A DNA stretch of 64,000 nt from Nitrospinaceae bacterium. Its GTDB lineage: Bacteria > Nitrospinota > Nitrospinia > Nitrospinales > JACRGP01. A program made the translations under genes and the position numbers. A model generated the notes under the pieces. The model saw nothing but the letters and a program-made list of their open reading frames with translations, ran no database searches and was not told the origin of the DNA. The stretch lies in contig JAJDBB010000095.1 of NCBI GenBank assembly GCA_029261555.1, positions 33,511 through 97,510 on the forward strand. The letters are read 5' to 3'. This document shows positions 2,989 through 19,304 of this stretch, one piece after another (the stretch's first letter is position 1; each line of letters begins with the position of its first letter).

Positions 2989-3003
2989 GTGATTACCTAT
3001 GCG

Positions 3004-3019: not shown

Positions 3020-3087
3020 ATTCATGTGTATAGCAGTCAATGTGACTGATGAATGGATCATTCTTAAACTTACCTTAGGAGGCAGGC

Positions 3088-3309
3088 ATGTTTTATGAAG
3101 TCCGAGTATACAAAGCCAATGGCACGTTGAAGCAAAGAATTTCCGATACCGAATTGACTGACAAGCATTGGGATAAATTTGAGAAGACTGAGGGAGAAAT
3201 CGGCCTCAATAGTTCTGGGACGAAACCCGTACCTGCATGGGTTAAGGCAAAACTGGATATTGAATTCCCATCCAACTTGGAGTTGGGTTATCAAGCTTCT
3301 CAGGGTTGA
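3088..3309 (+). CDS. Small hypothetical protein (73 aa)
   Basis: Strong RBS (TAGGAGG) before the ATG, first gene after the sigma-54 promoter, protein-like composition. Confidence 0.8.
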   Translation: MFYEVRVYKANGTLKQRISDTELTDKHWDKFEKTEGEIGLNSSGTKPVPAWVKAKLDIEFPSNLELGYQASQG

Positions 3310-3337
3310 ACTGAAATAACTGCTTAGAGGCCTGCTG

Positions 3338-4471
3338 ATGAATGATCCCAATTATTCTAAAGTATCTTTTGAGAATATTCTGGACAGTAAAATTCTTGTC
3401 GTCGACGACGACGAATCCAATGCCAGGCTATTAGAATATCTGCTCCTTCGCAATGGCTATCGTACGGTGCGCTGGACCACCGACCCGCGAGAGGCTTTAA
3501 AAATATATCAGGAGTTTAGTCCGGATTTGATTCTTCTGGATCTTGAGATGCCTCATATGGATGGTATCGAGGTCATGGAGAAACTTCAAGAGATCGAAAG
3601 AGAAACCTATCCCTCCATAGTAGTTATTACTGCAAACAATAATGATGAAGTCAAGATCCGCTCTTTAGCTTCAGGAGCGATGGATTTTCTTGCCAAGCCC
3701 TTCAATGGGGTGGAAATGATAGCGCGTATCAAAAATATATTGAATGTTCGTCACCTTCACAAACGAGTCAATGATGATAATAAAGTTTTAGATCAGAAAA
3801 TCCGAGAAAGAACTCGGGAATTATCCGATAGCCGGTTGGAAGTCGTTCAACGACTGAGCCGCGCCGCGGAATGCCGAGATAACGAAACGGGGATGCACGT
3901 TATACGTATGAGTCGTTATTCCTATCTTTTAGCACAAGCGATGGGACTATCCATCAATCAATGCGAACTGTTGCAACATGCCAGCCCGATGCACGACATC
4001 GGTAAAATTGGAATTCCCGACAGCATTTTGCTAAAAGCCGGGAAGTTGGATGCCACGGAATGGGAAGTTATGAAAAGTCATACCAAAATCGGAGGGCAAA
4101 TTCTATCCGGTTCCGGTTCAAAGCTACTGCAAATGGCTGAAAGTATCGCTTACACCCATCATGAGAAATGGGACGGATCGGGTTATCCTCGTGGATTGAA
4201 AGGTGAAGACATTCCTATTGAAGGGAGAATTGTGGCTATTTGCGACGTGTTTGACGCGCTTACTTCCGGGCGTCCCTATAAAAAAGCATGGTCAGTGGAA
4301 AAGGCTGTTCAAGAGCTAAAAGATAATTCCGGAATTAACTTTGACCCGTTTCTGGTGAATATATTTATCGAAATCCTGCCGCAGATTCTGAAAGTCAAGG
4401 AATGCTACACAGATCAACAAACTATGGAGCGATCAAACGGTTCGGGAGTTGCTCAACTATCCTGCAGTTGA
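3338..4471 (+). CDS. REC + HD-GYP c-di-GMP phosphodiesterase (RpfG-like)
   Basis: Receiver ILVVDDD...LLDLEMP...KPF, then ETGMHVIR, HDIGKIG, HHEKWDGSGYP and CDVFDALTSGRPYK. Confidence 0.95.
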   Translation: MNDPNYSKVSFENILDSKILVVDDDESNARLLEYLLLRNGYRTVRWTTDPREALKIYQEFSPDLILLDLEMPHMDGIEVMEKLQEIERETYPSIVVITANNNDEVKIRSLASGAMDFLAKPFNGVEMIARIKNILNVRHLHKRVNDDNKVLDQKIRERTRELSDSRLEVVQRLSRAAECRDNETGMHVIRMSRYSYLLAQAMGLSINQCELLQHASPMHDIGKIGIPDSILLKAGKLDATEWEVMKSHTKIGGQILSGSGSKLLQMAESIAYTHHEKWDGSGYPRGLKGEDIPIEGRIVAICDVFDALTSGRPYKKAWSVEKAVQELKDNSGINFDPFLVNIFIEILPQILKVKECYTDQQTMERSNGSGVAQLSCS

Positions 4472-4530
4472 GTAATATTTTATTTAACACGAGTGCACCC
4501 AGTGCCGCAGTCCCATGAGAAATATTTTCT

Positions 4531-5715
4531 ATGTCTGATCTTAAATTTGAACCTTCTGAAATCAAAATCCTGATTGTGGACGACACCCTGACCAATATTG
4601 AGGTGTTGCATAAAACCCTCGAGCCGGAAGGATACGCCGTTTCCGTTGCAACCCACGGCGAGATGGCTCTGGAGATAGCCTCTCACCTGAATCCTGATTT
4701 AATTCTTTTGGATATTATGATGCCGGGAATTAACGGATACGAGACCTGCGAGCGTTTGAAGAAAAATGAAGATACCCGGGACATTCCGGTTATTTTTATT
4801 TCAGCAAAAGGTGAGATGGAAGATATTGTGGAGGGGTTCCGCATGGGAGGGGTGGATTACATCACCAAACCATTCCGCAGTGAAGAGGTACTTTCCCGGA
4901 TTAAAACCCATGCGCAGTTGAATTATTTAAAAAAACAACAGGAAAAACGTATTAAGGAATTGGAATATCAGAACCACAAGCTAAGAAATTTGGATGAAAT
5001 AAAAAACCGTTTCCTCGGAACCGCCATGCACGACCTGAGGAGTCCTCTTTCCGCAATCAGCGGTTTTTCAGATCTCTTTTTACTTGGGGATGAGTCTTAC
5101 TCAGAAGATCAAAAAATAGAATGGGTCAAAATGATCAATCAAGTCAGCAAAGACCTTTTAGGGCTGGTCCACAATTTGTTGGATATTTCGGTATTTGAAA
5201 GCGGTCAGTTAAACCTGAACCTGTCCTCAGGGAATCTGAGTCCCTTGCTCCTGAAACAGGTCAAGATGAATCAAGCTTACTCGAATCAGAAAAACATCTC
5301 TATTATTACTTCGCTGGAAGAAGTTCCCAACTCGATATTCGACTCTAACCGGATGGGCCAAGTCATAGACAATCTCATCAGCAATGCCATCAAGTTTTCC
5401 CAGCCGGGGACTTCCATTCAGGTAGGATTAACCCACAACGACGAGAGTTTGGAATTTTATGTCAAGGATGAAGGTCCTGGAATTCCCAAGGAAGACCAGT
5501 GCCGGTTGTTCACCGAATTTCCCGGAATCAACGTGCATCCGACCAATGGTGAAAAAAGTACGGGTTTAGGCCTGTTCATTGTTAAAAAAATTGTGGAAGC
5601 GCACTCTGGAAGCATTCAAGTGGAGAGTATAGAGGGCCAGGGAACGATATTTCATGTTCAGCTACCCCTGATCGTGGCTCGGCCAGACTTGAAGTCCGTC
5701 AATATCTTTCATTGA
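4531..5715 (+). CDS. REC-HisKA-HATPase hybrid kinase
   Basis: ILIVDD...LLDIMMP...ITKPF, AMHDLRSPL, NLISNAIKFS, DEGPG, STGLGL. Confidence 0.95.
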   Translation: MSDLKFEPSEIKILIVDDTLTNIEVLHKTLEPEGYAVSVATHGEMALEIASHLNPDLILLDIMMPGINGYETCERLKKNEDTRDIPVIFISAKGEMEDIVEGFRMGGVDYITKPFRSEEVLSRIKTHAQLNYLKKQQEKRIKELEYQNHKLRNLDEIKNRFLGTAMHDLRSPLSAISGFSDLFLLGDESYSEDQKIEWVKMINQVSKDLLGLVHNLLDISVFESGQLNLNLSSGNLSPLLLKQVKMNQAYSNQKNISIITSLEEVPNSIFDSNRMGQVIDNLISNAIKFSQPGTSIQVGLTHNDESLEFYVKDEGPGIPKEDQCRLFTEFPGINVHPTNGEKSTGLGLFIVKKIVEAHSGSIQVESIEGQGTIFHVQLPLIVARPDLKSVNIFH

Positions 5716-5720
5716 AATAA

Positions 5721-5906
5721 TTCCCAACAGCAAGCAAAAATGATGATGCCAGAATCCGCTCGTTGGCACTCGGAGCCATAGACTTTCTTCCCAAACCTTT
5801 CAACCGGACAGAAGTGGTCGTGCGGATTACCAACATGTTGAGAGTGCAGCCCGTTTTGCAAACCCGCAAAGTATCCAAAAAGGATAAAGATTTGTTTAGG
5901 GGCTAA
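5721..5906 (+). pseudogene. Start-less remnant of a receiver domain (C-terminal half)
   Basis: Manual translation gives TASKNDDARIRSLALGAIDFLPKPFNRTEVVVRITNMLRV, which aligns with TANNNDEVKIRSLASGAMDFLAKPFNGVEMIARIKNILNV of the HD-GYP protein. It is preceded by an in-frame TAA (5718-5720). Confidence 0.75.
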
Positions 5907-7401
5907 GCAGTTGAGGTACTTCGTCAACTTGCAGGCCTGTGGTTTGTTGGATGAGTTGAATCACACTTGCATCCATCGTCTCCATCAATGGTCCGGGATA
6001 CAATCCAATACATAATACGAGGATAGCCAATGGAATTAGTGTGGCCAATTCCCGCTTCGATAAATCTGGGAGTACTTTGGCGACTTCTGTTGATGGCTCT
6101 CCCAAAGCCACCCTTTGGAGTGTCCACAACATATATGCGGCAGCTAAAACAATACCGCCCATAGAGATAAGAACCATGGCAAAGCTGACATAGGAGGTTC
6201 CTACTAAGACTAAAAATTCGCCAATAAAATTACAGGTGCCTGGTAGCCCAAAGGCGGCGACTGAAAATAAAAAGAACAATGCAACAAATCTTGGCATGGG
6301 TTTGTGTAAGCCGCCGTAGTCAGAAATCTCTCGACTGTGGGTGCGGTCGTACAATTGTCCAACAGCAATAAATAATGCTGCAGTAGTAATCCCGTGATTG
6401 AACATTTGCAAGACGGCCCCCTGGATGCCTTGGCTATTGAAAACAAAAATTCCGAGAGTAACAAAACCCATGTGAGAAACTGAAGAATAAGCCACGAGCT
6501 TTTTAAGATCCGACTGCGCCAAGGCCACGTACCCGCCATAGACAATGGCTGTGACCGATAGCCACAAAATATATGGGGCGAAAATTGCCGAAGCCTCTGG
6601 AAACATCGGCAAACAAAAACGTAAAAACCCATATCCCCCCATTTTCAACAGCACTCCAGCCAGAATCACGCTGCCAGCCGTTGGGGCTTCGGAGTGCGCG
6701 TCCGGGAGCCAGGTATGAAAGGGAACCATTGGCATTTTTATGGCAAAAGCCAGAAAGAACGCCAGGAATAACCAGTGTTGAGTGCTGGAAGAATAAGTTT
6801 GTTCAGATAACACCAACAGATCGTAGGTATGCCCTCCATTAAGAAAAAGACCCAATATTCCCACCAGGAGCAGTAAGCTTCCAGTTAGACTGTACAAAAC
6901 GAATTTAAGCCCAGCAGCAATGCGATTCGGTCCCCCCCATAGAATAATCATGAAATACATGGGAATCATTGTAAGTTCCCATAACATGAAAAACAGGAAA
7001 AGATCCAGTGCGGTAAAGACCACAATCATGGCGCCTTCAACTAACAGGATCAGCGAGAGAAAGGCTCGTACTCGTGTTTTAATTCCCGTCCACGAACAAA
7101 GGACACAGAGTGGACAAAGAAGGGCTGTGAGTAACACCATAAGAATACTGATGCCATCAACACCAACCGCATACTGAATATTAAACGTGGTCATCCATTC
7201 CACGCGTTCCACGAACTGCATGTCTGGCAGAGTGGAATCAAAATTCTTCCAAAGTATCAGCGAAAGGGCAAACACCACCAGTGTGATGCCAAAGGCAATT
7301 CGTCGAATCCATTCTTCATCACGCACAAATGCCAGAATGACGATTCCTAAAAAAGGAACGGCAATCATCCAGCTAATCAGATGATCCATCAATAGAGCCA
7401 T
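5896..7401 (-). CDS. NuoM-like proton-translocating antiporter-like subunit
   Basis: GVDGIS, TM5 Glu (LWELTMIP), TM7 Lys (FAIKMP), HTWLPDAHSEAPT, TM8 Lys (LLKMGGYG), LVAYSSVSHMG, TM12 Glu (NFIGEF). GGAGG RBS. Confidence 0.92.
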   Translation of the reverse strand: MALLMDHLISWMIAVPFLGIVILAFVRDEEWIRRIAFGITLVVFALSLILWKNFDSTLPDMQFVERVEWMTTFNIQYAVGVDGISILMVLLTALLCPLCVLCSWTGIKTRVRAFLSLILLVEGAMIVVFTALDLFLFFMLWELTMIPMYFMIILWGGPNRIAAGLKFVLYSLTGSLLLLVGILGLFLNGGHTYDLLVLSEQTYSSSTQHWLFLAFFLAFAIKMPMVPFHTWLPDAHSEAPTAGSVILAGVLLKMGGYGFLRFCLPMFPEASAIFAPYILWLSVTAIVYGGYVALAQSDLKKLVAYSSVSHMGFVTLGIFVFNSQGIQGAVLQMFNHGITTAALFIAVGQLYDRTHSREISDYGGLHKPMPRFVALFFLFSVAAFGLPGTCNFIGEFLVLVGTSYVSFAMVLISMGGIVLAAAYMLWTLQRVALGEPSTEVAKVLPDLSKRELATLIPLAILVLCIGLYPGPLMETMDASVIQLIQQTTGLQVDEVPQLLSP

Positions 7402-7526
7402 TTAAGAATCCTCCTGCCTACGAAAGAAGCAAACTTCCGACTTTTCAATTTAGCACAAGAAAAATGATGTAAGGCCATTCTCAACCAGATCCAATTTTTA
7501 TAATAGGGATAGAAACCGGGAACTCA

Positions 7527-9635
7527 TTAAACCATGATATACAATAGGCCAGTCATCGCCACTAACCAAAATATCATTACTAATAATTGATGTTTGATGG
7601 TACGGGATTCCATCTCTTGCAGTAATTTCGCTTCCGCAACTTGTTCTGCTACTTGCCCCACTTTCCCCTCCAACCACCGAATATCAACAATTCGCCATAA
7701 CCGCCTGGCAAAATGCACAGAATAAGTCGCGATAGAATTGACGAAACGATCTATGCCTCTTATATCCATAATTTGCCACAACCATCTGGCAAAATATACA
7801 GAATAAGTTGCGAGAGAATGGATGAAATGATCTATAACCCTTATATCAATATTTCGCCACATCCAGTGTGCGAACCGAATGGTTGGGGTTACCAGATAGG
7901 CCTCATAGATTTCATCAAAGTACCCTTTATTCCAAAACAGGACATACCATTGATTGCTTCTCGCATTTGCTTTGGAGACCTGATGTTGAGATCGAATCTG
8001 TGTTGAGTAGGCATAGACCCATCCCGCCACTGCCATGCCAAGAGAAACCACAAGCCAGAAAGAAAAGCCCTGCTCGACTACACCTTCGCCCAACGTGACT
8101 CCTGGAAAGTTCAAAGCTGGAGCTAGAAAATTGGCGAACCAACTCCAAAACAGAGTCAATAGCCCACCTGTAAAAATCGTAGCCAGAAAAAGACCCGTTA
8201 AAATGGAGCCATTTAAAAGCTGTGGTCGAACAGATTGCGCCTCCATACTATTTTGACCTGAAGCGGGCCAGTACGTCTTTGGACCGTGAACAAAAAGTGA
8301 GGTGACGCCTTTAAAAAGATATTGGGAAGCCACAAATACCGTGATCAAACCAATGATTTTGAATCCGATCGCGGCAGAAGCAAACCCCGTGATCGCCCAC
8401 AAATATTCATACGATCCGGAAAACAGCACAAACGGCGGGAGTAACGCCAACACCAGGGCTCCGCCATATAAGATGCCCATGCCTTCAGGGACACGGTGTT
8501 CATGGTCACCATGCTGAAGGCCCTGTTCCACGGATCGCAACGCATTGCCGGTAGATAGAAAAAAGAACGCTTTGTAACACCCATGGGCTAGAAGATGGAA
8601 AATCGCAACTGCAAACGCACCTAAACCACAGGCCATAATCATGAACCCGATTTGACTGATTGTGGAATAGGCCAAAACCTTTTTGATGTCCGATTGAGTC
8701 AAGGAAACTATCCCAGCAAATACCGCGGTAGTGGCACCAATAATGAAAATGACTGTCATGGCGTACGGAGAAAGGACAATCAACGGACTCAATCGCACTA
8801 GCAAAAAAGGACCCGCATTCACCATAGTAGCCGCATGAATAAGCGCCGAGACCGGAGTCGGCGCTTCCATCGCCCCGGGTAACCACACGTGAAACGGTAT
8901 TTGTGCTGATTTTCCCATAGCCCCCATAAAGAGAAAGAAGGGGATGAGCGTCACAGGATAGATATCAAGATTCAAGCCCACCCACCCTAAAATATTGATG
9001 GTATGGTTCTGCATTCCTTCCGCCTGAGCAAGAATAGTCTGGATATCGAGTGTGCCAAAGGTGAAAAAGGTTAGAATGATGCCAAAACTGAATCCGACAT
9101 CCGCGATTGCTTTAACGATAAAAGCTTTAGTAGCTGCCCGGGAAGCTGAAGGTCGTTCTGCTGCGTGAGAAATTAACAGATAGGAACAGATCCCCATAAC
9201 TTCCCAACTAATCAACAACATTAAAAGGTTGCCACTCATGACCAACAAAATCATAGAAGATGTAAACAAGGCAATGACGGCGAAAAAACGATTGTAGCGT
9301 GACTCTCCTATCATGTAACGAGAGGAATACACATGCACAACCCCACTTACTCCTGTGACCAAGAGCAAAAGCAGAACCGTCAGTTGGTCAACAAACAGAG
9401 TAAAATCAATGGTCAAGGAACCCGATTGAAAGAGGCGATAAAGAGAAAGAGTAAAAGGTCCATTTCTCAACACTTCAATGAAAGCGGCAACTGATAACAC
9501 AAAGGAAACACCGATGGCAGGAATCCCAATCCGGTGACTGTTCTCACCCCAACGACGTCCTCCAAGCAGGAGAATGAGAGAAGCCAGGAGGGGAAGCAAA
9601 GGAATGAGGGCGAAAAGAGCCATAATTTCCCTCAA
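7527..9635 (-). CDS. dabB: DabB/NuoL(NdhF)-like membrane subunit of a DAB-type inorganic carbon transporter, with extended lateral helix
   Basis: WEVMG, GKSAQIPFHVWLP, AMEAPTPVSAL, DIKKVLAYST, DabB-like VNAG and AHGCYKA motifs, NuoL-like tail NKGYFDEIY. In the same operon as DUF2309. Confidence 0.8.
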   Translation of the reverse strand: MREIMALFALIPLLPLLASLILLLGGRRWGENSHRIGIPAIGVSFVLSVAAFIEVLRNGPFTLSLYRLFQSGSLTIDFTLFVDQLTVLLLLLVTGVSGVVHVYSSRYMIGESRYNRFFAVIALFTSSMILLVMSGNLLMLLISWEVMGICSYLLISHAAERPSASRAATKAFIVKAIADVGFSFGIILTFFTFGTLDIQTILAQAEGMQNHTINILGWVGLNLDIYPVTLIPFFLFMGAMGKSAQIPFHVWLPGAMEAPTPVSALIHAATMVNAGPFLLVRLSPLIVLSPYAMTVIFIIGATTAVFAGIVSLTQSDIKKVLAYSTISQIGFMIMACGLGAFAVAIFHLLAHGCYKAFFFLSTGNALRSVEQGLQHGDHEHRVPEGMGILYGGALVLALLPPFVLFSGSYEYLWAITGFASAAIGFKIIGLITVFVASQYLFKGVTSLFVHGPKTYWPASGQNSMEAQSVRPQLLNGSILTGLFLATIFTGGLLTLFWSWFANFLAPALNFPGVTLGEGVVEQGFSFWLVVSLGMAVAGWVYAYSTQIRSQHQVSKANARSNQWYVLFWNKGYFDEIYEAYLVTPTIRFAHWMWRNIDIRVIDHFIHSLATYSVYFARWLWQIMDIRGIDRFVNSIATYSVHFARRLWRIVDIRWLEGKVGQVAEQVAEAKLLQEMESRTIKHQLLVMIFWLVAMTGLLYIMV
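7681..7876 (-). repeat. 81-bp (27-aa) in-frame tandem repeat, about 2.4 copies
   Basis: On the + strand, ATATC...GCCA units start at 7681, 7762 and 7843. Protein units: FAHWMWRNIDIRVIDHFIHSLATYSVY / FARWLWQIMDIRGIDRFVNSIATYSVH / FARRLWRIVDIR. Confidence 0.9.
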
Positions 9636-11101
9636 AGACCGGGTGGCAGAGCATGGTTTAACAACAGTTGAACAATGGGAGCACTGAATAAACCAAGAAT
9701 TATAATAGCTGTGGACGTGACTCCCAAAGTCAGTTTAAATGAGAGGGGAATTTTACCAAACTGAACGTCCGGTTGAGTTGATGTTTGGCGAAAAATGCTT
9801 TCAAACAGTTTAACGAAATAGGCAAGCGTCAAGAGCGTGGAGAGAACCACCGCGGCTACCGAAATATAATCGCCCGCTTCTAACGCTCCAAGAATGATGT
9901 ACCATTTGCCAAAAAATCCACCCGTCGGAGGCAGGCCAATCATGCCTAAGGCTACAACAACTAAAGATCCAGTAAGCCAGGGAGCTTTTTTTCCAACACG
10001 CCCTAAGTCGTCAATTGTTCTGATCCCATACTGAAAAAACGCGAAGCCTGCTATATAAAACAAGGCGGCTTGCATAACGGCATCGTTCAATAAATAAAAA
10101 ACTCCTCCGACAAACCCAGTTTGGTTGCCTTGACCGATTCCAATAAGAATGATGCCGATGTGTGAAATCCCTCCATAGGCAAACATCATTTTAATATTCC
10201 GCTGGGCCAAGGCCAGACTTGCGCCTATGACCGCCGCTAATGTTCCAAGAACTGCCACCAGTAGCAAAATCGGAATGTCATAAATGGCAATTGACACATT
10301 TAAGACCCAAAAGACTATTCTGACCCACGCCAATAGCACAACTTTCGTGAGGAGTGGAGCCAGGATAGGGGAAATAGAATCAGGAGCATGGGTATAGGCC
10401 TCGGGCATCCAAGCATGAAACGGGACTAAGGCCATCTTGATCCCTAAGCCAATAAATATAAAAAGCAGTCCACCCACTACAGCTCTAGAGTTTAGTAAAA
10501 AGGGAAGCCTCTCGGCCAAATCAGCCATATTCAGTGTGCCAGTCACCGCATAGAGATAACTCACTCCTAAAAGATAAAAGGAAGCACCAAGGGTTCCCAA
10601 TATAAGATAGCGAAAGGCTGCAAACAGCGCTCTTCCGCCAGCGACACCCACAAGTGCGTAACTCGAGATAGCGGCAACTTCTAAAAACACGAACAGATTG
10701 AATAAATCCCCAGAGAAAACAATGCCGGTCAAGGCGGATATTAATAACAAAATTAATGTGTAATAATGAGCGAGTCGGCCACCTAGAGCCTTTGGGGACG
10801 TGGGTCCAGCAAACACCACACCCAACAAACCCAAGGCACTCAATAACACCATGATGACACTCGCTAATCCATCAGCTACCCATTCAATACCGAGGGGCGC
10901 AGTCCATCCGCTAAATACATACCGCACCTCTCCATGATGAATGACGTTATAGAGATTTAAAATAGAGACCAGCACCATCGCCGCGAGAATTGCCACAGAA
11001 ATCGGCAGGCTCCAATGACGGTGTTTTAGACAAACCACTGGCATGGAAATAGCGGCAAACAATGGGAGAAGGAATAGGATTGCGGGAAGTTGGTGGCTCA
11101 T
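9632..11101 (-). CDS. mrpD: Mrp/Mnh Na+/H+ antiporter subunit D
   Basis: GWTAPLGIEWVAD, GDLFNLFVFLEV, LGIKMALVPFHAW, GLPPTGGFFGKW. Overlaps both neighbours by 4 bp. Confidence 0.9.
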   Translation of the reverse strand: MSHQLPAILFLLPLFAAISMPVVCLKHRHWSLPISVAILAAMVLVSILNLYNVIHHGEVRYVFSGWTAPLGIEWVADGLASVIMVLLSALGLLGVVFAGPTSPKALGGRLAHYYTLILLLISALTGIVFSGDLFNLFVFLEVAAISSYALVGVAGGRALFAAFRYLILGTLGASFYLLGVSYLYAVTGTLNMADLAERLPFLLNSRAVVGGLLFIFIGLGIKMALVPFHAWMPEAYTHAPDSISPILAPLLTKVVLLAWVRIVFWVLNVSIAIYDIPILLLVAVLGTLAAVIGASLALAQRNIKMMFAYGGISHIGIILIGIGQGNQTGFVGGVFYLLNDAVMQAALFYIAGFAFFQYGIRTIDDLGRVGKKAPWLTGSLVVVALGMIGLPPTGGFFGKWYIILGALEAGDYISVAAVVLSTLLTLAYFVKLFESIFRQTSTQPDVQFGKIPLSFKLTLGVTSTAIIILGLFSAPIVQLLLNHALPPGL

Positions 11102-11475
11102 TCCAATTTTTCAAGAATTTTTTGTTCGTCAAGGCTTCCATACTCTCGATAGATCGCCCCGCACAGGGCTAATCCCACGCCGAGGGTCGCCACGCCAACT
11201 ACAATAGCTGTTAGCGTCAAGACATGAGGTAACGGATTCGCATAGCTGGCCGCTTGCACCGGCTCCGTGGTTGACAAGAGCACGGGAACCGTCGCGCCCT
11301 TCTTCACACTAATAGACACCAGGAAAAAAATCACACTGGTTTGCACCAAATACATCCCGATGAGTTTCTTTACGAGATTGTATCGCGTAACCATGATATA
11401 AAAGCCCCACAGAAAAATGATGACAAATGTCAAAAAATTGGGTCGCTGAAAAACTGCAGAAAATGCATCAACCAT
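11098..11475 (-). CDS. mrpC: Mrp antiporter subunit C
   Basis: NLVKKLIG and NPLPHVLTLTAIVVG signature. Confidence 0.92.
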   Translation of the reverse strand: MVDAFSAVFQRPNFLTFVIIFLWGFYIMVTRYNLVKKLIGMYLVQTSVIFFLVSISVKKGATVPVLLSTTEPVQAASYANPLPHVLTLTAIVVGVATLGVGLALCGAIYREYGSLDEQKILEKLE

Positions 11476-11920
11476 TTATTGAATCCTCGATAATCTCTTC
11501 AGCAGACAAGCTGAACACGATAGAAACGGCTGTTACCGCAACATCGACAGCCACACCGATTTGCGTGAGTACGATTCCCAAAGATCTTCGAGAAGCAGTT
11601 TCTAAGCCTGGAATTTCCAAATTCGCATAATTGAGGAACTCTCCACCCCCAATCATACACAAGCCACCTACCCCCGCGAAGATCAGCATCCCGACGCCGT
11701 CAGCATGTAAAACCTTTTTGGCAATTTGACTCCGGGTATTGTCATGACCAAAAATCAAAACCGATAAGATCATCCCCATGCCTAGAATCACCCCACCCAC
11801 AAATCCTCCCCCTGGTCCGTATTGCCCAAAAAACAATACATGTAAACCGAAAATTTGGACCACCGGGATGAGAAAGCGCCCCAAGGTCTGTACGATAATG
11901 CTGTCGTGTGGGCGTATCAT
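11468..11920 (-). CDS. mrpB: Mrp antiporter subunit B
   Basis: GQYGPGGGFVGG signature, about 4 TM segments. Confidence 0.9.
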   Translation of the reverse strand: MIRPHDSIIVQTLGRFLIPVVQIFGLHVLFFGQYGPGGGFVGGVILGMGMILSVLIFGHDNTRSQIAKKVLHADGVGMLIFAGVGGLCMIGGGEFLNYANLEIPGLETASRRSLGIVLTQIGVAVDVAVTAVSIVFSLSAEEIIEDSING

Positions 11921-12447
11921 TATACCTGTCTCCTAAGCAGTAAAGCACAAGCAATGCCGGACGCAAAAATCACCACGGTTTCGATCATCGTATCAAGCGA
12001 TCGATAGTCCATCAGTACCGCAGTCACAACATTCGGAGTGTTGGTATCCTGATAGCTCTGCTCGAGATAGGTCGGCGAAATATGAACACTCGCTGGAGAA
12101 TTGGGGTCTCCAAATGCAGGAAGATCCTTCGCGGCATAGAGCAGAAGAACTCCCAGGAGAGGGAAAATAATTAACGTTGTCAGAGAAGGAGGCGGGCGCC
12201 GAAGCCGAGTGTCTTTGGGGGCAGTACCGAACAGAGTTAATAGAAACAGAACAGTAGCTAATCCTGCTCCTACGACGGCTTCAACGAAGGCGACGTCCAC
12301 AGCCCCAATCCATGCCCATACCAACGCCAGGAAAAAACTATAAGAGCCCAAGAGCAGAACGGAACTCATCAAATCCTTAACCATGATGGCTCCGGCGGCA
12401 GTAGTAAGCAGAAGAAGGAGTAAAAGAATTTGAACTGAAAAGGTCAT
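11920..12447 (-). CDS. MrpA C-terminal (DUF4040) / MrpB N-terminal-type subunit (split MrpA)
   Basis: AVDVAFVEAVVGAG and TPNVVTAVLMDYRSLDTMIE motifs. Confidence 0.88.
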   Translation of the reverse strand: MTFSVQILLLLLLLTTAAGAIMVKDLMSSVLLLGSYSFFLALVWAWIGAVDVAFVEAVVGAGLATVLFLLTLFGTAPKDTRLRRPPPSLTTLIIFPLLGVLLLYAAKDLPAFGDPNSPASVHISPTYLEQSYQDTNTPNVVTAVLMDYRSLDTMIETVVIFASGIACALLLRRQV

Positions 12448-12743
12448 GAGTTTTCCTTTTTCCAGGGTTTTAAACCAGACCGGAGAGCTGCGCGAACCGT
12501 GGCATGGGTAATGCCTGGATTTAGAATATATAGCAAGGCCAACACCACTAGAATTTTCAGCATATTAGTCCCCAGTCCTTCATGCCAGGCGATTCCAATT
12601 AACATCAAAAAGGCCCCTAAGGAGTCTGTCAATGATACGGCATGAGAACGACTAAACACATCGGGCAATCGTATCACTCCAATCGCGGCAACAATCAGAA
12701 AAAATAATCCCGCTACTATAAAAATAATGGAAAGTATGTCCAT
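12444..12743 (-). CDS. mrpG: Mrp antiporter subunit G
   Basis: IGVIRLPDVFSRSHA...DSLG...NPGITH. Likely start is the ATG at 12743. Confidence 0.92.
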   Translation of the reverse strand: MDILSIIFIVAGLFFLIVAAIGVIRLPDVFSRSHAVSLTDSLGAFLMLIGIAWHEGLGTNMLKILVVLALLYILNPGITHATVRAALRSGLKPWKKENS

Positions 12744-12744
12744 G

Positions 12745-13011
12745 CTACGAATGTCCCTTTTCTTCCAAATACTTGGCCACTGCAAGCGCTCCGACTAAAT
12801 TTAGCAGGGCATACCCAGTCGAAATATCAACAAACATATCGACTCGTTCAAAATAAACTCCAATGACAATAAGCAAAATAATGGCCTTGGTGGAAATGCC
12901 ATTGAGCCCCAACACACGATCAAAAACTGTGGGACCGCGCAGGACACGGTACAGATACGCACCAATGAGAATAGCCAGCAACACTAAAACGCAGAAAAGA
13001 AAAATTTTCAT
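12745..13011 (-). CDS. mrpF: Mrp antiporter subunit F
   Basis: YRVLRGPTVFDR signature. Confidence 0.92.
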   Translation of the reverse strand: MKIFLFCVLVLLAILIGAYLYRVLRGPTVFDRVLGLNGISTKAIILLIVIGVYFERVDMFVDISTGYALLNLVGALAVAKYLEEKGHS

Positions 13012-13514
13012 AAATCCGGCTCTTCGTCCTTAAAAATATCTGCAATTTTCGATTCAATCTGCTTACTAGTAATATCTTCGGCTAAAGTTTTATCCATCGC
13101 GTGAATAATGAGTTTATTACGGTCAACCTCTGCGGTAATTGTTCCAGGTGTTAACGTAATGGAATTACCGAGAAGAACAACGGCTGCGTGGTGACGCAGT
13201 TTTGTTTCTACAGAAATCAACTGAGGAGCAATGGGAAGCGCAGGATGCAAAATAAGCTTGGTCAATTGAAGGCTACTTTGAACGATTTTATAAAAAAGCC
13301 ATGGAAGGTAAAGCAGGATTCTGAGCCACAAACGAAATTTTGGAACAAAAGGTGAATGACCAGAGTTGATCCAAGCCACGGCGAAAGAACAAATAAACCC
13401 CAAACCAAGATGAATCCATGCAAAGCTGGCAGACAACAAAACCCAAACCACAAACAGCGCCATGGCTTTTAAAAACAGGAATTCGGATGATATGGGTCTA
13501 GTTCGAGTTGCCAT
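13008..13514 (-). CDS. mrpE: Mrp antiporter subunit E
   Basis: LLGNSITLTPGTIT signature. Confidence 0.92.
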   Translation of the reverse strand: MATRTRPISSEFLFLKAMALFVVWVLLSASFAWIHLGLGFICSFAVAWINSGHSPFVPKFRLWLRILLYLPWLFYKIVQSSLQLTKLILHPALPIAPQLISVETKLRHHAAVVLLGNSITLTPGTITAEVDRNKLIIHAMDKTLAEDITSKQIESKIADIFKDEEPDL

Positions 13515-13691
13515 AAAATTATCAGATACGGGTTTGACTGCACAGTATCAGTGTCATATGATTTTCCCTAAAAAACCAGCCCGGGACTTATAACGAACAT
13601 CTGTATTCTTATAACAGTCGGTACCTATCTTCAATATTTATCTAAATAGAGCTCATGATATATATCTAATTTTCGAACAAGATATATCTAA

Positions 13692-16600
13692 TTAACTAAC
13701 ATGAACCGGTTCCCACGTCGCATTGGGATTGTACCGATGAAACTCAAAGTTATGGGGATTCAAGGCAATAAGGTTAAGCCATTGATTATGAAATAATTGT
13801 TGAAGGATCGAGTGTTTTTGAATGATAGATGTGATTACGCTCGGCGTCTGTTCGATGACAGCTAACAGTCGCATCGGTTCATGATAGTGAGCGTTCCCGT
13901 CATTGACTGTTTGTAAGGGGAGTCCCATTAGCAAATCACTTTGGGTTCCCAGCATCATCCCAACACCCCCAACGACATTGTGTAACACTTTACTCCCACT
14001 TCCATACGACCATGGATCAACGGCAGGAAAATAATAACCCATGCTAATCCACTCGCCGACTATTAATGGCGCGGTCATAATTTTTTCAAGGATGGCACCT
14101 TCAGGATCAGCAATAGGATCATAAGAATGCAAGAAAACCCGACCGCCTAAATCTAATCCTTTGGTCAGGTTTCGTCTTCCAATGAGAAACGCTCCATTGC
14201 CGGCCAATCCCCATTCCGGGCGAGTATTCGCCCAATCGCAACTGCGTTCGTCCACATGAGCAAATGCCTGCTGTGGAGAAATTTTAGTCGGCGCTTTAGG
14301 AATGTGATGGCATCGCTCAAGAGCCTGCTTGGCGCCAGCTTCTTCGAGATCCTTGTTCAACGATTGCAAATCTTCTTTATGCGAATCTGGCAATTCCTCT
14401 AGATCGTAAAACTCGACCCGATCAGTCGTCGTGTTATGTTTCCCCGGAAGAAACCAGGCGTCATCGGGAATCGGCAATCCTTTTTCCTTGAGAATGCGAC
14501 GAACATCAGGTTCATTCGCCATCGCGGCAAAAACGCGCGCATTGGCGTCGCCCGGCGCTCCCCCGCAAGCCCCGCAATCCAACGCCCCATAATAGGGATT
14601 GTTGTCCGTCTCACTTCCATGGCCACAGAGACACACCAACCGCGCAAAATTTTTGGTAAGCCCCATTCCACGCAAACCATTTTCGACAAATGTCGCCCGT
14701 TCCGAAAGAGAAAATCCCCGAGAAAGCCCGTCAGGAATTCCTTCCGCATTCACTTCTCCGATCCTGGGATTCTGAGGATCAGATGGCGTGGAAATTGAGA
14801 TCTGGGTTGGAACCCTATGCGTCAACCAACTCTGGATGGTAGAGGTCACTGCACGAAATGGTTTTTGGAGCAAGGTCTTGCCCACCAACCCCAGACTAAA
14901 AAACAACCCCAAGACGTCAATCACCATCATCGACCCAATCGGATGATGCTTCAGGTCGTGAAAAAGATGCCCCCCCAGTAGGCGCCAGCGACTACCGGAA
15001 GAATATTTTTCTAACGCCGCTCCTTCTCCAGACCGAGGTGTTTCCGTCACCGCATGGTTAGGAGTCAATAGCACCGGACATAAAATGGCACGTTGATTAT
15101 TATCAAAAGCTTGATGGCTAATGGGAATGCCAAAAAAACCTGCAAACCCAAACGTTTCATAGGGACCTTGGGCTTCAAGATGGCGACGAAATGATTCAGA
15201 ACGTACGTCGATACAAAAGACGAGTTGTGCCTGGGGACGCGTTTCCAATTCCGGTACCGTTCCGCGATGCGCTGAAATATTTCTCAGAATCTTCTCTCGA
15301 AAGGAATCTTCGTACGCCTCAATCCATACCCGTCCATGTTGATCGGCAGGAGAGTGCTCTATCCATTGCAACAACATCTGGGCGTCAGTAAGCGAGAGAT
15401 CGTGAACTTCTCTTGGAGATAACTCAAGAAACTGTGCCAAATGGAATAATCGCCAAACATGTCGGCATGTCATCTGTTTGGTTGGATCCCCAGATTGTCC
15501 TCCATGCCCCATTCGTTGGCGGTATTCCTCGGGTCGATCATTCCAATATGCAGTCAAGGTAGAAACCGTCCCGTCAATGCCCCATTCTTGTTGGCACTTG
15601 ATGTTGGTCAACTCCACTTCATAGAATAGACGCACGGCCAGATATTGCGTGGTGTCAATGGGATGTTTGTGTTGCGCATGGTATGTTGGGTGTTCCCCAA
15701 GCCACCGTATATATCGCGTCCAGCCTGGTAATAATGATAGTTGCCTTGAGAGGTAATCTTCCCATTGTTCTTGGGGAATTTCGAGTTGGTCCAAGCTGGA
15801 ATGGATCGCGTCCTCTGGATCTGCAGGAAGGCTATGAACTTTTTGGGCGAAATCTGTAACCCCGAGAAGCTGCCCCGAAAAATCTTTTTGCGCCAGGTTC
15901 CGCCATACTTGGTAGAAACCTTCTTCTCGGCCAGGCATTTCCCAGCCGGCTAATCCTTCATCTAGAAACGCCGTCACCCATTTGATGAGTTGATTATTGA
16001 TTTGTTCAACCACCTCACCCTCAGTCAAATTATCAACCCAATCGCTGATGGTCCGTTGAGGCGATAAGGAAATGGGCGCTGACGTTTGCGAATGCGAATC
16101 CTCGGAACTTTGAGATGTAGCTTGAAAATCAGATGGCACGAATGTGGCTAACACACTCTTCCACAAATTCGTCAGATAGGCCTCTTCTGGATACTCCCGA
16201 TTCTGCTCATATTCCTTGATGGTTTGTTCAATAATTCGTTTCTGGGATTCCTCGGAAAGATCTTGCCGAAACCGCTTTGTAGCTCCACCACCGCTTAACT
16301 CCCATTCCAAGAGGGATAGTGGCAATTCCTCGAGGCCAAAAAGTACGTGTAATTGCCAAACATCTTTGGCGGTAACTCTTCGACTTCCAATTTCAATAGA
16401 ACCTTGTTCATCTAGGCGAGGCCCAACTCTGGAAAAAGCACGCTCAAAACTTTCTTTGGTAATACGACCATTTCGGTAAAATTGACGATACTCCTCATTT
16501 GGGAGATACCCATTTCCACCAAGGAGGTCCTTGCCTTTTCGAACAGCCTGATCAAACGGCAGATATTCCAATCCATGAATAGGATTTTGCGCGACCATGG

Positions 16601-16715
16601 TCCGCATGGGCCAAAATGGCGCAATGGGTTCACTGGCGTTCAATACAATTTGCCGAACCTGATCGCGATCTTCTGAGGAAAGGGACTTCACTGAAATAGG
16701 ACTCATATTGAGCAA
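13692..16715 (-). CDS. dabA: DabA/MpsB (DUF2309, UPF0753) beta-carbonic-anhydrase-like subunit of an inorganic carbon transporter
   Basis: IAPFWPM...AQNP, Zn ligands in FCIDVRSE, GHGS and LDCGACGG, HNTTTD, RPEWGLAGN, FLHSYD, YGSGSKVLHNVVG, HEPMRL. Confidence 0.95.
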   Translation of the reverse strand: MLNMSPISVKSLSSEDRDQVRQIVLNASEPIAPFWPMRTMVAQNPIHGLEYLPFDQAVRKGKDLLGGNGYLPNEEYRQFYRNGRITKESFERAFSRVGPRLDEQGSIEIGSRRVTAKDVWQLHVLFGLEELPLSLLEWELSGGGATKRFRQDLSEESQKRIIEQTIKEYEQNREYPEEAYLTNLWKSVLATFVPSDFQATSQSSEDSHSQTSAPISLSPQRTISDWVDNLTEGEVVEQINNQLIKWVTAFLDEGLAGWEMPGREEGFYQVWRNLAQKDFSGQLLGVTDFAQKVHSLPADPEDAIHSSLDQLEIPQEQWEDYLSRQLSLLPGWTRYIRWLGEHPTYHAQHKHPIDTTQYLAVRLFYEVELTNIKCQQEWGIDGTVSTLTAYWNDRPEEYRQRMGHGGQSGDPTKQMTCRHVWRLFHLAQFLELSPREVHDLSLTDAQMLLQWIEHSPADQHGRVWIEAYEDSFREKILRNISAHRGTVPELETRPQAQLVFCIDVRSESFRRHLEAQGPYETFGFAGFFGIPISHQAFDNNQRAILCPVLLTPNHAVTETPRSGEGAALEKYSSGSRWRLLGGHLFHDLKHHPIGSMMVIDVLGLFFSLGLVGKTLLQKPFRAVTSTIQSWLTHRVPTQISISTPSDPQNPRIGEVNAEGIPDGLSRGFSLSERATFVENGLRGMGLTKNFARLVCLCGHGSETDNNPYYGALDCGACGGAPGDANARVFAAMANEPDVRRILKEKGLPIPDDAWFLPGKHNTTTDRVEFYDLEELPDSHKEDLQSLNKDLEEAGAKQALERCHHIPKAPTKISPQQAFAHVDERSCDWANTRPEWGLAGNGAFLIGRRNLTKGLDLGGRVFLHSYDPIADPEGAILEKIMTAPLIVGEWISMGYYFPAVDPWSYGSGSKVLHNVVGGVGMMLGTQSDLLMGLPLQTVNDGNAHYHEPMRLLAVIEQTPSVITSIIQKHSILQQLFHNQWLNLIALNPHNFEFHRYNPNATWEPVHVS

Positions 16716-16735
16716 CTTATTCCTGTCTCAGACAT

Positions 16736-16842
16736 AAAAAAGGCCAACCGCTTCTCCCCATCTCCAAGGAAATGGTTTGTAACATGGTTGGCTTGTGTTG
16801 CGGATGACTTCACAAACTGAATGCGTCAAACACCCCACAGCC
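16736..16842 (-). ncRNA. Candidate cis-regulatory leader RNA (riboswitch/attenuator) upstream of dabA
   Basis: Terminator-like stem GCCAACC/GGUUGGC followed by a U6 tract, about 20 nt before the start codon. Its 5' strand overlaps a competing helix GGCU-GUG/CAC-A-AGCC. Confidence 0.6.
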
Positions 16843-16997
16843 TTAAAAAGTTAAACTTAAGCCTAGAATGCCTATTCCTTTCAGTTTGAAACAAAAAGAA
16901 AATAAAAGTCTAGTCTTGATATGAAAAAAAAACAATCACTTTTACCATTTCCATCAAGAATTTCCGGAATGAGACAATACCACTGCTTGGACTGCGG

Positions 16998-17270
16998 TTA
17001 ACCGCTTAATTTAAATAGGTCCTCGTTACCGTCCGCGGGGCAAAAGATCACCTGGAATCCATCATTCAAGGTCATGCGTTTACCGCCGTTGCAGTCTGGG
17101 TCTTCAGCGGGCACCCATTTCTTTACCCCGCCATGGTCCTTTTGTAGCGGCAGGTAATATTTCAAGTATTCATCTTTAGAAGCGAAATGGTACTTCACAC
17201 CGGACTCGGGTCCCTGCGAACAAGCTCCCAGCCAAAGCGATATTAAAACCGCACAGAATATCGTTCTCAT
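16998..17270 (-). CDS. Small lipoprotein of unknown function (90 aa)
   Basis: Start MRTIFCAVLISLWLGAC with an LGAC lipobox and a GAGGG RBS. Confidence 0.7.
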   Translation of the reverse strand: MRTIFCAVLISLWLGACSQGPESGVKYHFASKDEYLKYYLPLQKDHGGVKKWVPAEDPDCNGGKRMTLNDGFQVIFCPADGNEDLFKLSG

Positions 17271-17519
17271 AGAAACCCTCCCGAAAGTATTGTCACGTTC
17301 ACCTATCCATTTAAATAAGTCGGGATCAACATCATTCCCACTATTGTACGTCTTTAAATGATTCTGGACCAAGAGCTGTAAATAAACTAGAGACACATTT
17401 GGTTTATAGTCCTTCGATAAGAATTGTGCAAGTTCAAGTTAAGCGACTCTGATGGGGAATGTTCAAAGGCCAAGCCGCCCCCCAGATAGCCACCCGAACA
17501 CACACCAATGTGCCCGGGG

Positions 17520-17601
17520 AATTGTGGGGAATTTTTGGGGTTTTGGAGGGAGTGGAAAGTATCTCGTAGCTTTTTTTCTCTACGGATCTCCATTCGCTGT
17601 G
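17520..17601. repeat. Diverged ~80-bp direct repeat, copy 1
   Basis: AATTGTGGGGAATTTTTGGGGTTTTGGAG...AAAGTATCTCGTAGCTTTTT aligns with 18797-18878. Confidence 0.7.
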
Positions 17602-17608
17602 GTTGAAA

Positions 17609-18304
17609 TCAGTAAGAAAGTCCCAGCGCTTCCGTAATGAATTTTACGAGCGGGCTCGTAGCCGAGAATGCCTTTCGAACCTCTTTGATGAATTCCGGCT
17701 TTAGCGCTAATGTGGGTTTGACCGTTTGAAGAACAAAAAAGGTTTTACGTTTCAAATCCACAATATGGGGATGGTCCGGATCAAATCCTTTGGGCGGGCG
17801 TTTTAGCCCGTCTCCGTCTACCCCGCCAAACCGCTTCACTAGCGCTCTGTTTTTTATCACCTTTCCCCATTGTTCTGAATTCCTTACAATGGCGGTACGA
17901 ATTTTATTGAGCTCCGGATTGGGGGCCTTCCAGATCCCAGCTCCGAAAAATACTACATCCGGTGCAAGGTGCAAATAGAATCCGGGCGCGTGAGCGTCCT
18001 TGCCTGCTAAATGCCGAAAATGGCAACCCACGTGGTCCTTGTAGGGACGTTTATCCTTTGAGAAGCGTGTGTCCTTGTAGATCCGAAACATTGATCCGCC
18101 ATTCGGCCTTGGGTCGGCGGTATAGTACTCGGAGATTTTGTTCAACGCCGGCTGGATAGTCGTGATGAATTCGCACACGGGGGCGACCACGTTCGAGCGG
18201 TAGCGATCCTTATTGGCATTAAACCACTCTCGATTGTTGTTTTTAGAGAGGTCGGAAAGGAACTCAAAAAGCTCTTTCGGAAACCCTGGAAAGTCTTTTT
18301 TCAT
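17609..18304 (-). CDS. DUF2461 / TIGR02453 family protein
   Basis: FLSDLSKNNNREWF, MFRIYKDTRFSKDKRPYK, GFYLHL, LKRPPKGFDPDHP. Start ATG at 18304. Confidence 0.92.
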   Translation of the reverse strand: MKKDFPGFPKELFEFLSDLSKNNNREWFNANKDRYRSNVVAPVCEFITTIQPALNKISEYYTADPRPNGGSMFRIYKDTRFSKDKRPYKDHVGCHFRHLAGKDAHAPGFYLHLAPDVVFFGAGIWKAPNPELNKIRTAIVRNSEQWGKVIKNRALVKRFGGVDGDGLKRPPKGFDPDHPHIVDLKRKTFFVLQTVKPTLALKPEFIKEVRKAFSATSPLVKFITEALGLSY

Positions 18305-18408
18305 TTTTTGTACTGTGAGAAAGTGTTGGGCATTTTCCACAAGTCCCCAGGTTTTCCAAGGTCTACCCAGATGCGATATATCACAACATTTTAATGGAGA
18401 AATTTCAT

Positions 18409-18708
18409 ATGAATATGATATCAGGAAATTTGGTCGGGGGCGATGATGCACACCCTGCCTCAGGTACGATTAAAATTGAAGGAGATGTTCTTAAACTGGT
18501 AGAGGTTCAATTAAGTGAAGCGCCAGACGCCCGGGTCCTCCTTGCCAAAGAATTTGACGAATCCTCGGGTATGCGCTTGGGACCTCTACAGGGTTTCACC
18601 GGAAGCCATGAGTACCCCCTTCCGTCAGGAGTGGACGCCAAGGATTATAATACAGTCCTAATTTGGTGCGATGAATTTAACGTCCCCATTGGGAAAGCAC
18701 AGCTCTAG
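18409..18708 (+). CDS. DM13 domain protein
   Basis: HPASG...APDARVLL...LGPL...G..EYPLP...YNTVLIWCDEFNVPIGKA. GGAGA RBS before the ATG at 18409. Confidence 0.85.
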   Translation: MNMISGNLVGGDDAHPASGTIKIEGDVLKLVEVQLSEAPDARVLLAKEFDESSGMRLGPLQGFTGSHEYPLPSGVDAKDYNTVLIWCDEFNVPIGKAQL

Positions 18709-18796
18709 CCAGAATCTGTGGTGGCAGAGAGAAGTTCAAAACACCAAGCCGACGCCCCAAGGGGGGTCACTCGAACAGGCGCTAAAGCGCTCAAGA

Positions 18797-18878
18797 AATT
18801 GTGGGGGATTTTTAGAAATTTGGAGAATGTAGAAAAGTATCCCTTAGCTTTTTAACTCAATCGGTCCACTTTGCTCTG
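18797..18878. repeat. Diverged ~80-bp direct repeat, copy 2
   Basis: AATTGTGGGGGATTTTTAGAAATTTGGAG...AAAGTATCCCTTAGCTTTTT aligns with 17520-17601. Confidence 0.7.
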
Positions 18879-18983
18879 ACGGCAAACAGACAATCTGACG
18901 CCACTACCCCTTTCTTAAACTTCCCTCTTCTCCCATGTGTCACAATGAGCGGATGTCTTTCACTTAAGAAGAAGAAGGGGTTT

Positions 18984-19304
18984 ATGACCGAACATAATTT
19001 AGGGAAATGGCGCCAAGTTTACTTTGGGCGCGGCAAAACATATACCATTAATGGGCAGCAAATAGCGATGTTTAGCATTGATGGTGAGCTTTTTGCTATT
19101 GACGATGCCTGCCCGCACGTGGGAGCGTCATTGGGAAGCGGCAAATTGGAAGGGAAACTGGTGGCCTGCCCCGCCCACGATTGGCAATTTGACGTCACCA
19201 ATGGAGAATGTATTACTGTCGATAGGTGTGATGATGGGTGTTATGTTGACACTTATCCGGTAAAAATAGAAAACGACGAAATAATTTTAAGCTTGCCTTT
19301 TTAA
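18984..19304 (+). CDS. Rieske [2Fe-2S] ferredoxin (NirD/dioxygenase ferredoxin-like)
   Basis: CPHVG...CPAHDWQF (CxH...CxxH). Likely start is the ATG at 18984 after AAGGGG. Confidence 0.9.
   Translation: MTEHNLGKWRQVYFGRGKTYTINGQQIAMFSIDGELFAIDDACPHVGASLGSGKLEGKLVACPAHDWQFDVTNGECITVDRCDDGCYVDTYPVKIENDEIILSLPF

Follow-up and report, generated by a model that had tools for sequence, protein, structure and literature searches.

A 64,000-nucleotide stretch from the genome of a Nitrospinaceae bacterium of the marine nitrite-oxidiser type (assembly GCA_029261555.1, contig JAJDBB010000095.1, positions 33,511 to 97,510), hereafter the window, carries dabA, the gene for the carbonic-anhydrase-like subunit of DAB pumps, followed on the same strand by nine membrane genes of the Mrp antiporter and complex I types. 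This dabA-Mrp operon is a real, conserved and apparently undescribed large form of the DAB pump; each of its halves is already in print, DAB with nuoL/nuoM in one place and the nine membrane genes as an antiporter in another. The membrane genes and dabA are a real operon-like set and not a chance neighbourhood, since their order is kept down to about 50% DabA identity. We consider it probable that the ten products form a single complex, and give most of that weight to H+ moving in and Na+ moving out. The full reading that we put forward, with due reserve, places DabA on the NuoL-like subunit and the sodium module at the far end, so that inward H+ drives one-way CO2 hydration while Na+ leaves. 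Genomes, contigs and loci are numbered with G, C and L.

Results

The ten open reading frames (ORFs) lie on the minus strand, from 16715 to 5896, in the order dabA-mrpE-F-G-A'-B-C-D-L-nuoM, in which A' is a stand-alone gene for the MrpA C-terminal domain, D is mrpD-like, L is NuoL-like and M is nuoM:

13692..16715, minus strand: dabA, 1007 amino acids, PF10070 (E value 1e-267); L837 within the RPEWGL motif
14871..15005, minus strand: finger and elbow helices of DabA (residues 571-615), two helices in the model
13515..13691, minus strand: dabA-mrpE gap, 177 bp
13008..13514, minus strand: mrpE, PF01899
12745..13011, minus strand: mrpF, PF04066; first Asp kept, Asn at the Asp38 position
12444..12743, minus strand: mrpG, PF03334, TIGR01300 above cut-off
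11920..12447, minus strand: A', an MbhD+MbhE-like C-terminal piece of MrpA, PF13244 and PF20501; D51, E56, D147, D152, E156
11468..11920, minus strand: mrpB, PF04039; PGGGF gate motif
11098..11475, minus strand: mrpC, PF00420, NF005624 above cut-off
9632..11101, minus strand: mrpD-like antiporter subunit D, PF00361; E141, K222, K253, K399
7527..9635, minus strand: L, TIGR01974 at 470.8 bits (cut-off 407.5); residues numbered from base 9626
7681..7865, minus strand: 81-bp (27-amino-acid) tandem repeat lengthening the lateral helix of L, 2.3 copies, 80% matches
5896..7401, minus strand: nuoM-type M, TIGR01972 at 614.2 (cut-off 263.8); E142, K222, K253, H310, H336, E395

A preliminary description of the window had claimed a single co-oriented operon, and ten ORFs of the expected families are indeed found there. 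The intergenic distances from dabA to nuoM are, in order, 177, -4, +1, -4, -1, -8, -4, -4 and 125 bp, the D-L distance of -4 bp assuming the TTG start at 9635 for L; from mrpE to L the genes overlap or abut, as had been claimed, with spacings of -8 to +1 bp. The start of mrpG is most likely ATG 12743 rather than TTG 12785 of the ORF list. Three genes of the PF00361 type share the apparent operon with dabA, and the Mrp hallmark set is complete (MrpB, C, D, E, F and G plus the MrpA C-terminal domain), the full-length MrpA of groups 1 and 2, with both domains in one chain, being split here. The earlier statement that NuoB/C/D/I and hydrogenase genes are absent holds for window positions 1-25000, where no nuoB/C/D/I/H or hydrogenase gene was found, and no redox arm or NuoH-like anchor is present in the operon or in 49 complete loci of relatives.

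A species-genome scan with the window DabA gave 154 relatives, the closest of them titled Nitrospinota, and the best 80 of the 154 were kept as 68 loci. mrpE lies downstream of dabA in 62 of the 68, and all nine membrane genes follow in order in 49, with 13 cut by the locus end; five of the six loci without mrpE end within dabA and the sixth 480 bases past it. The dabA-mrpE gap is at most 586 bp in 54 of the 62 loci, at most 10 bp in six, and 1.9-9.7 kb in eight, the inserts being a degP-like gene, an inverted canonical DAB operon and others. Among 120 Nitrospinota genomes, 43 carry this type of dabA, all within the taxonomic order of the window's genome, with mrpE directly behind it in 37 (hand count) and 6 cut by contig ends; L is present in 39, 35 of which also carry window-type dabA, and three of the other four are cut by contig ends. 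Genomes cut in this way (G030, G039, G028, G221, G038, G197 and G209) were counted neither for nor against, and nothing stated here depends on G602. In Nitrospirota, where three candidates were scored per genome, L occurs in 18 of 301 sampled genomes (above 1000 bits; next best 625), with a same-strand dabA within 14 kb in 17 of them. The complete order was also seen in four Gammaproteobacteria (G041, G051, G052 and G815) and in metagenome locus L071; L was found in 3 of 400 gammaproteobacterial genomes. Several closed genomes, among them G018, G037, G354 and G503, show the window-type dabA as their sole dabA. Conservation of the gene order, named as a test in the preliminary description, is thus seen in Nitrospinota, Nitrospirota and four Gammaproteobacteria; the relatives are kin and not independent, so the counts are descriptive and are not tests.

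A spread over more than three phyla is unsupported: cluster names gave only Nitrospirota, Gammaproteobacteria and one contextless protein labelled Petrachloros mirabilis, and a 3-kb contig titled Phycisphaerales (L056) is 87% like Nitrospina and was set aside. A metagenome scan with the L alignment used generic patterns and says little on breadth, 77 of 80 loci among the matches listed being ordinary complex I. Other arrangements were also seen. Locus L175 (G504:C39) holds another expanded DAB, with a nuoM-like gene, dabA, a short L-like gene and two more nuoM-like genes. The Nitrospirota loci L168:5748-9080 and L195 encode a DabA with no adjacent membrane gene, possibly the partnerless type of PMC13147460. 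In Nitrospinota, L216 and L217 (G182 and G212) contain an Mbx/Ehr-like cluster with NuoH-, NuoC- and NuoI-like genes around an Mrp module.

The window DabA aligns to DAB2 chain 9rd0_A with an E value of 1.8e-120. Its four zinc ligands, intact according to the preliminary description, are confirmed as C501, D503, H699 and C714 and are invariant in 58 of 58 other near-full-length rows. The finger acid, Asp600, is likewise unchanged in 58 of 58 rows; in the second DabA of this genome the site is Glu. Throughout the 62 rows of L the Lys of transmembrane helix (TM) 12 is missing and Ala, Ser or Gly takes the place of the TM6 Arg. The same rows all retain the TM5 Glu, the TM7 Lys and the TM11 His-His-Lys; the residues kept in the window's L are E142, K239, H264, H344, H348 and K352. 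In DAB2, finger Glu444 stands in for Lys399/Asp400, and the absence of the Glu disrupts the Arg175/Glu144 pair (10.64898/2026.03.13.711513). A role of the finger in carrying protons is doubted in the work on DAB1 (PMC13684180). The finger-replacement hallmark of DAB pumps is thus found here in the invariant Asp600 and the missing TM12 Lys, together with a predicted contact between Asp600 and L.

That contact comes from a complex prediction that covered the DabA-L pair alone among the ten chains. DabA 490-960 with L 60-585 scored 0.78, against 0.00 for the best of three controls, a value that speaks for likeness to DAB2 rather than for binding, because the DAB2 structure 9rd0 is solved and true-partner cousins pass too. 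The score mark is reached by 116 of 157 solved pairs and by 2 of 215 mismatched pairs. The runs agree in at least 91% of contacts, with a partner predicted local distance difference test (pLDDT) value of at least 79, and the closest predicted contacts join DabA 596-606 to L 343-354, with Asp600 beside His344 and touching L 343-347.

L matches NuoL at an E value of 1e-79, DabB2 at 4e-38 and MrpA at 6e-38, and scores above the NuoL cut-off and below the DabB-type models. The best structural match of its model (pLDDT 69.8; below 50 past residue 617) is Escherichia coli NuoL (Z 37.1, root-mean-square deviation 3.0, 414 aligned); 9rd0_B was not among the 50 matches listed, from which no conclusion is drawn. 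L forms a subfamily of its own, of about 18 top clusters. In quick trees built without group 1 MrpA or NdhF, L and DabB group apart from NuoL with a Shimodaira-Hasegawa-like approximate likelihood ratio test (SH-aLRT) support of 95 at full length (71 rows), and of 87 over TM1-11 (39 rows) or 98 after two rows are removed. L would be a distinct DabB-related subfamily of NuoL-like subunits with DabB-like residue changes. It has the full lateral helix and the last TM; the tail from the lateral helix measures 134 residues in the window against 27 in DabB, and the shortest lateral helices of L, at 79-81 residues, compare with 77 and 80 in the genome's own NuoLs. A helix of at least NuoL length could span two further pumps. 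The 27-amino-acid repeats add up to three units while the gene set stays unchanged. The idea that the helix serves as a ruler for extra pumps was rejected, since lengths of 79-81, 107-108, 133-136 and 162 residues occur with the same gene set and since such insertions exist in ordinary NuoL.

The charged-residue chain through L, M, D and the sodium module appears largely intact. All six axis residues of M are retained in 56 of 56 rows. In D the Glu and the three Lys persist throughout the 60 rows, with a compensating swap (His314/Gln344 in 54 rows, Ser/Lys in 6). A' aligns to 7qru_A, 6u8y_D/E and 6cfw_D/E and has its acids kept in 64 of 64 rows; the equivalents of MrpA Asp678, Asp771 and Glu780 are invariant, and the Glu687-type Glu lies one turn earlier, as in MbsD. 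The gate Phe of MrpB (F40, equivalent to Phe41) is found in 63 of 63 rows. In loci L008 and L061 the E-D block is a different allele, D being 47-49% identical to the window and 78% between the two, with DabA and L showing different patterns; L008 compares with the window at 88% for DabA, 77% for L and 49% for D. The sodium block has been swapped in these loci yet kept in position, which suggests that the slot matters.

Natural losses bear on whether DabA works without the arm. Four genomes (G541, G470, G546 and G422) have no mrpE and no L, and all retain a canonical dabB. In the first three, dabA has been reduced to residues 1 to ~490-530, plus at most a small fragment of the rest, and a 26-codon mrpB relic lies at the former arm position; in G422, dabA is spread over three frames by two frameshifts. 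That dabA decays once the arm is gone fits a DabA that depends on this arm and that the other DabB does not rescue.

Upstream of dabA lies a structured leader, a candidate attenuator or riboswitch:

16728..16860, minus strand: leader made up of a hairpin whose stem varies, a linker that is conserved, and a terminator-like hairpin carrying a U run

The copy in the window has diverged from the others. It belonged to the training set of the leader model (R1), of which it is the sole match in genome and window, and by itself it shows modest folding (z -1.76). The first helix has two-sided changes in 5 of 6 pairs, and pairing lies above all 500 shuffles and all slid controls, an excess that relatedness inflates. 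The model matched 28 of 41 Nitrospirota genomes. In all 30 loci examined (L179-L208, 30 of the 60 matches listed) the leader stands upstream of dabA, mrpE, dabB or sulP: 13 before mrpE, 8 before window-type dabA, 6 before the dabB of canonical operons, 1 before another dabA and 2 before sulP, the last nine being kinds outside the training set. Many Nitrospirales have a second, terminator-bearing copy directly before mrpE, so that mrpE can have its own control point, one shared with carbon-uptake genes. The leader was not found in six DabA-free stand-alone Mrp loci, in the gammaproteobacterial loci or in several Nitrospina loci, and has no Rfam match in the window or in 7 loci. Assignment to the Na+-I (DUF1646) or Li+-I (nhaA-I) riboswitches was rejected, there being no Rfam match and the G-rich P2 loop of the published examples being missing; the P1 base alone resembles one published Li+-I example.

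The preliminary description had held that a separate promoter in the dabA-mrpE gap would make the Mrp genes an independent unit. No such promoter appears in the window's own gap, which has no minus-strand promoter-like or terminator-like match and no leader copy; the promoter and terminator scans gave no excess over shuffles (18 versus 18.3 and 11 versus 16.2). In relatives the idea partly stands, given the leader before mrpE in many Nitrospirales, the eight of 62 gaps of 1.9-9.7 kb and a separation of 260 kb in G362. A 22-bp AT-rich tandem repeat (13660-13701) lies at the dabA stop, within the gap. In four RNA runs, 28-30 of 30 bins are covered by contigs from relatives, though such coverage, uncontrolled by a silent stretch and made of contigs, is no proof of co-transcription. 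One contig, from a run whose RNA nature is a guess, spans the dabA-mrpE gap.

The genome's own complex I genes lie on contigs C53 and C5 (genome size 3.05 Mb, 86% complete). Contig C127 holds a second DAB locus, of the canonical type (C127:1-5222, L002), with a dabB fragment, a degenerate NuoM-like gene of 412 amino acids, a dabA of 1083 amino acids with the finger Glu, and a PII-like gene. Loci of this type are widespread in Nitrospinota and Nitrospirota, and are sometimes the inverted insert between dabA and mrpE. The operon is flanked by a convergent response-regulator/kinase cluster and by unrelated genes. The cluster, at window positions 33-5715 on the plus strand, runs towards the operon end and encodes response regulators and hybrid histidine kinases, an HD domain being present in one; similar genes follow nuoM in L053. 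The upstream neighbours (16998-19304 and 21059-25659) are a 132-amino-acid hypothetical protein, DUF2461 and DM13-domain proteins, a Rieske ferredoxin and an RND efflux pair, and G+C climbs from ~0.45 to 0.53 near position 20000. In relatives' loci an NhaR-type regulator, sulP or a beta-carbonic anhydrase is frequently found upstream, as is a gene that we take to be MpsC-like; the NhaR-type regulator (NF008284 above cut-off) stands before dabA or mrpE in two loci tested.

Discussion

In the complex that we propose, the ten chains would form a redox-free arm L-M-D-C-A'-B-F-G-E with DabA docked on L. The DabA finger would enter L beside TM11, where Asp600 would substitute for the missing TM12 Lys/Asp, the part played by Glu444 in DAB2. 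With its TM5 Glu kept and a lateral helix no shorter than that of NuoL, L would link to M and then to D, like NuoL-M-N, and D would link to the sodium site in A'/B/C. Going by both parent systems, protons would enter, the DabA active site would be switched on, bicarbonate would accumulate and sodium would leave; the resulting sodium gradient could feed the SulP transporter that is often encoded just upstream. The position of DabA is plausible by analogy, as L and DabA would sit where the catalytic arm of MBH sits, on the side opposite to that of complex I (PMC7419157). That DabA replaces the redox arm on an Mrp/complex-I-like arm, as first suggested in the preliminary description, is partly supported, by gene order, residues, the DabB-like docking subunit and the decay of dabA, while assembly of all ten chains is inferred; and it seems apter to see DabA as consuming energy than as driving the arm in the manner of a redox module. 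More tentatively, the system may be a ten-subunit, redox-free member of the complex I superfamily, with a carbonic-anhydrase-like enzyme as the load of a complete three-pump arm that includes a sodium module, and an unreduced, ancestral-like precursor of DAB1 and DAB2; it would be under an undescribed riboswitch-like leader, common to it and the other carbon-uptake operons of nitrite oxidisers, that senses perhaps bicarbonate, CO2/pH or sodium.

Several observations weigh against the single complex. L is nearer to NuoL than to DabB2 in both sequence and fold, an approximately unbiased (AU) test does not reject the grouping of L with NuoL (p 0.053), and the docking score has the limited meaning given above. 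MrpF has Asn for Asp38 in 66 of 66 rows (the position is also non-Asp in 6 of 8 DabA-free clusters), and MrpB has Gln for His34 in the window. The truncations in G541, G470 and G546 probably go back to one loss event in related genomes, because the 26-codon mrpB relic is common to all three, and with split dabA beside an intact arm in L018, L044 and L069 the G422 frameshifts are weak evidence. G010 (92% complete) has an intact L-M behind nhaD, with no mrpE and no matching dabA found; its L-M locus (L157, G010:C16:72000-76237) lies amid glycosyltransferase-like genes. Metagenome locus L072 (6606-12303) reads dabA-L-M with no mrp genes between; its DabA is without the exact GHG and DCGAC motifs and may be divergent or degenerate. 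In the closed Nitrospirota genome G362 an intact dabA lies 260 kb from the arm. Finally, proton entry and hydration would both acidify the cytoplasm.

The alternative that survives best, in our view rather improbable, is that of two machines in one regulon: DabA-L(-M) would be an enlarged DAB pump, and MrpE-F-G-A'-B-C-D a separate antiporter for pH or for the sodium gradient of SulP. L072 and the L-M of G010 agree with such a division, a clade in which dabA accompanies nuoL- and nuoM-like genes has been described (PMC5700660), the E-D block of L008 has followed a separate history, and "Ca. Nitrospira alkalitolerans" lists a second mrpE-D cluster with one mrpD (PMC7784846). However, the gene for L comes after mrpD, which it abuts, and lies seven genes from dabA; the helix of L could reach across two further pumps; the swapped E-D block has stayed in its slot; and in the three DabA-free clusters L218-L220 (E-F-G-A'-B-C-D) the positions of L and M are taken by two more antiporter-like genes.

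Somewhat less likely again is one complex run in reverse, in which Na+ entry through the Mrp module would drive H+ export along D-M-L and remove the hydration proton, giving sodium-powered bicarbonate accumulation. The marine settings indicated by run titles and RNA holders, the invariant sodium-site acids of A' and PGGGF gate, the NhaR-type regulator in the two loci tested and the argument that MpsAB uses sodium (10.64898/2026.03.13.711513) point this way. Against this, DAB2 is proton-coupled and sodium-independent (10.64898/2026.03.13.711513), and characterised Mrp complexes export sodium (PMC7784846, PMC9568556), with Mrp modelled as 2 H+ in per Na+ out (PMC9568556).

It is very unlikely that the nine membrane genes encode just a usual antiporter of Mrp group 3, with dabA as a neighbour acting alone or with canonical DabB: this is the published reading in "Ca. 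N. alkalitolerans" (PMC7784846) and probably in N. gracilis (PMC3578206), and G010 and G362 agree with it, but L without its TM12 Lys looks incomplete in the absence of the DabA finger, dabA decays after arm loss though canonical dabB remains, window-type dabA is the only dabA in several closed genomes, and the leader was not found at the six stand-alone Mrp loci.

If the single complex exists, the complex I/Mrp superfamily gains a non-redox catalytic module and, with it, a natural system for studying how an antiporter-like axis powers a load at its far end. In the principal marine nitrite oxidisers, genes at present annotated as a salt-tolerance antiporter or as NADH dehydrogenase L/M would then be assigned to carbon uptake, which bears on the many carbon transporters of energy-poor nitrite oxidisers that have been called mysterious (PMC13147460). 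Whether protons or sodium drive such pumps, the point in dispute between DAB2 and MpsAB, could be tested directly in this system, and with its tie to carbon-uptake genes the leader makes a concrete orphan-riboswitch candidate.

Comparison with known systems

DAB2 (DabA2-DabB2 of Halothiobacillus neapolitanus, 9rd0), DAB1 (DabA-B-C of T. albus) and MpsAB have the zinc ligands, active-site Leu and acidic finger in common with the window system. The likeness extends to the partner subunit, in which the TM11 H-H-K is kept, the TM12 Lys lost and one residue of the Arg/Glu ion pair removed. In contrast to DabB2, L keeps the TM5 Glu (Ile in DabB2), loses the Arg instead, and has the full lateral helix and last TM; the finger acid here is Asp, and there are eight further membrane genes including a sodium module. 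The two- or three-subunit form of DAB2 and DAB1, with a short axial helix and no TM5 Glu, is therefore not matched by a system with nine membrane genes and E142 kept. DabC is half-sized and has hydrophobic residues at proton-path sites, whereas M is an intact NuoM.

In cyanobacterial NDH-1MS, CupA/B on NdhF3/4 likewise forms a CO2-hydrating module on the NuoL-like subunit of a long membrane arm, but that system is redox-driven, its CupA is unrelated to DabA and it has no Mrp sodium module. In MBH and MBS of Pyrococcus (6cfw, 6u8y) the sodium module also derives from Mrp, and the C-terminal part of MrpA is divided there into MbhD/E-type pieces; the window system differs in that it lacks a NuoH-like anchor as well as Fe-S and NiFe subunits, and that it has three antiporter-like subunits and a carbonic-anhydrase-like catalytic module.

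The COGNAT clade C operons (PMC5700660) have ybcC (dabA) upstream of nuoL-like and nuoM genes with sulP nearby and were proposed to encode multi-ion complexes; MrpB/C/E/F/G are unmentioned in the examined part of that paper. No literature link between DabA and an Mrp module was found, with subscription journals and preprint supplements outside coverage, nor is one made for the "Ca. N. alkalitolerans" cluster in the text or table examined of PMC7784846. In DabA-free Mrp clusters the last two genes are only 25-30% like NuoL. The group 3 Mrp/Mnh cluster of "Ca. N. alkalitolerans" (NSPALKALI_v1_30027-30035) has the same nine membrane genes in the same order; PMC7784846 places it near bicA and assigns it to Mrp group 3, with additional mrpA/D-like genes. 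The eight-subunit Mnh antiporter mentioned for N. gracilis (PMC3578206) is probably the same membrane set. The published "Ca. N. alkalitolerans" cluster is thus very probably the membrane half of a dabA-Mrp system.

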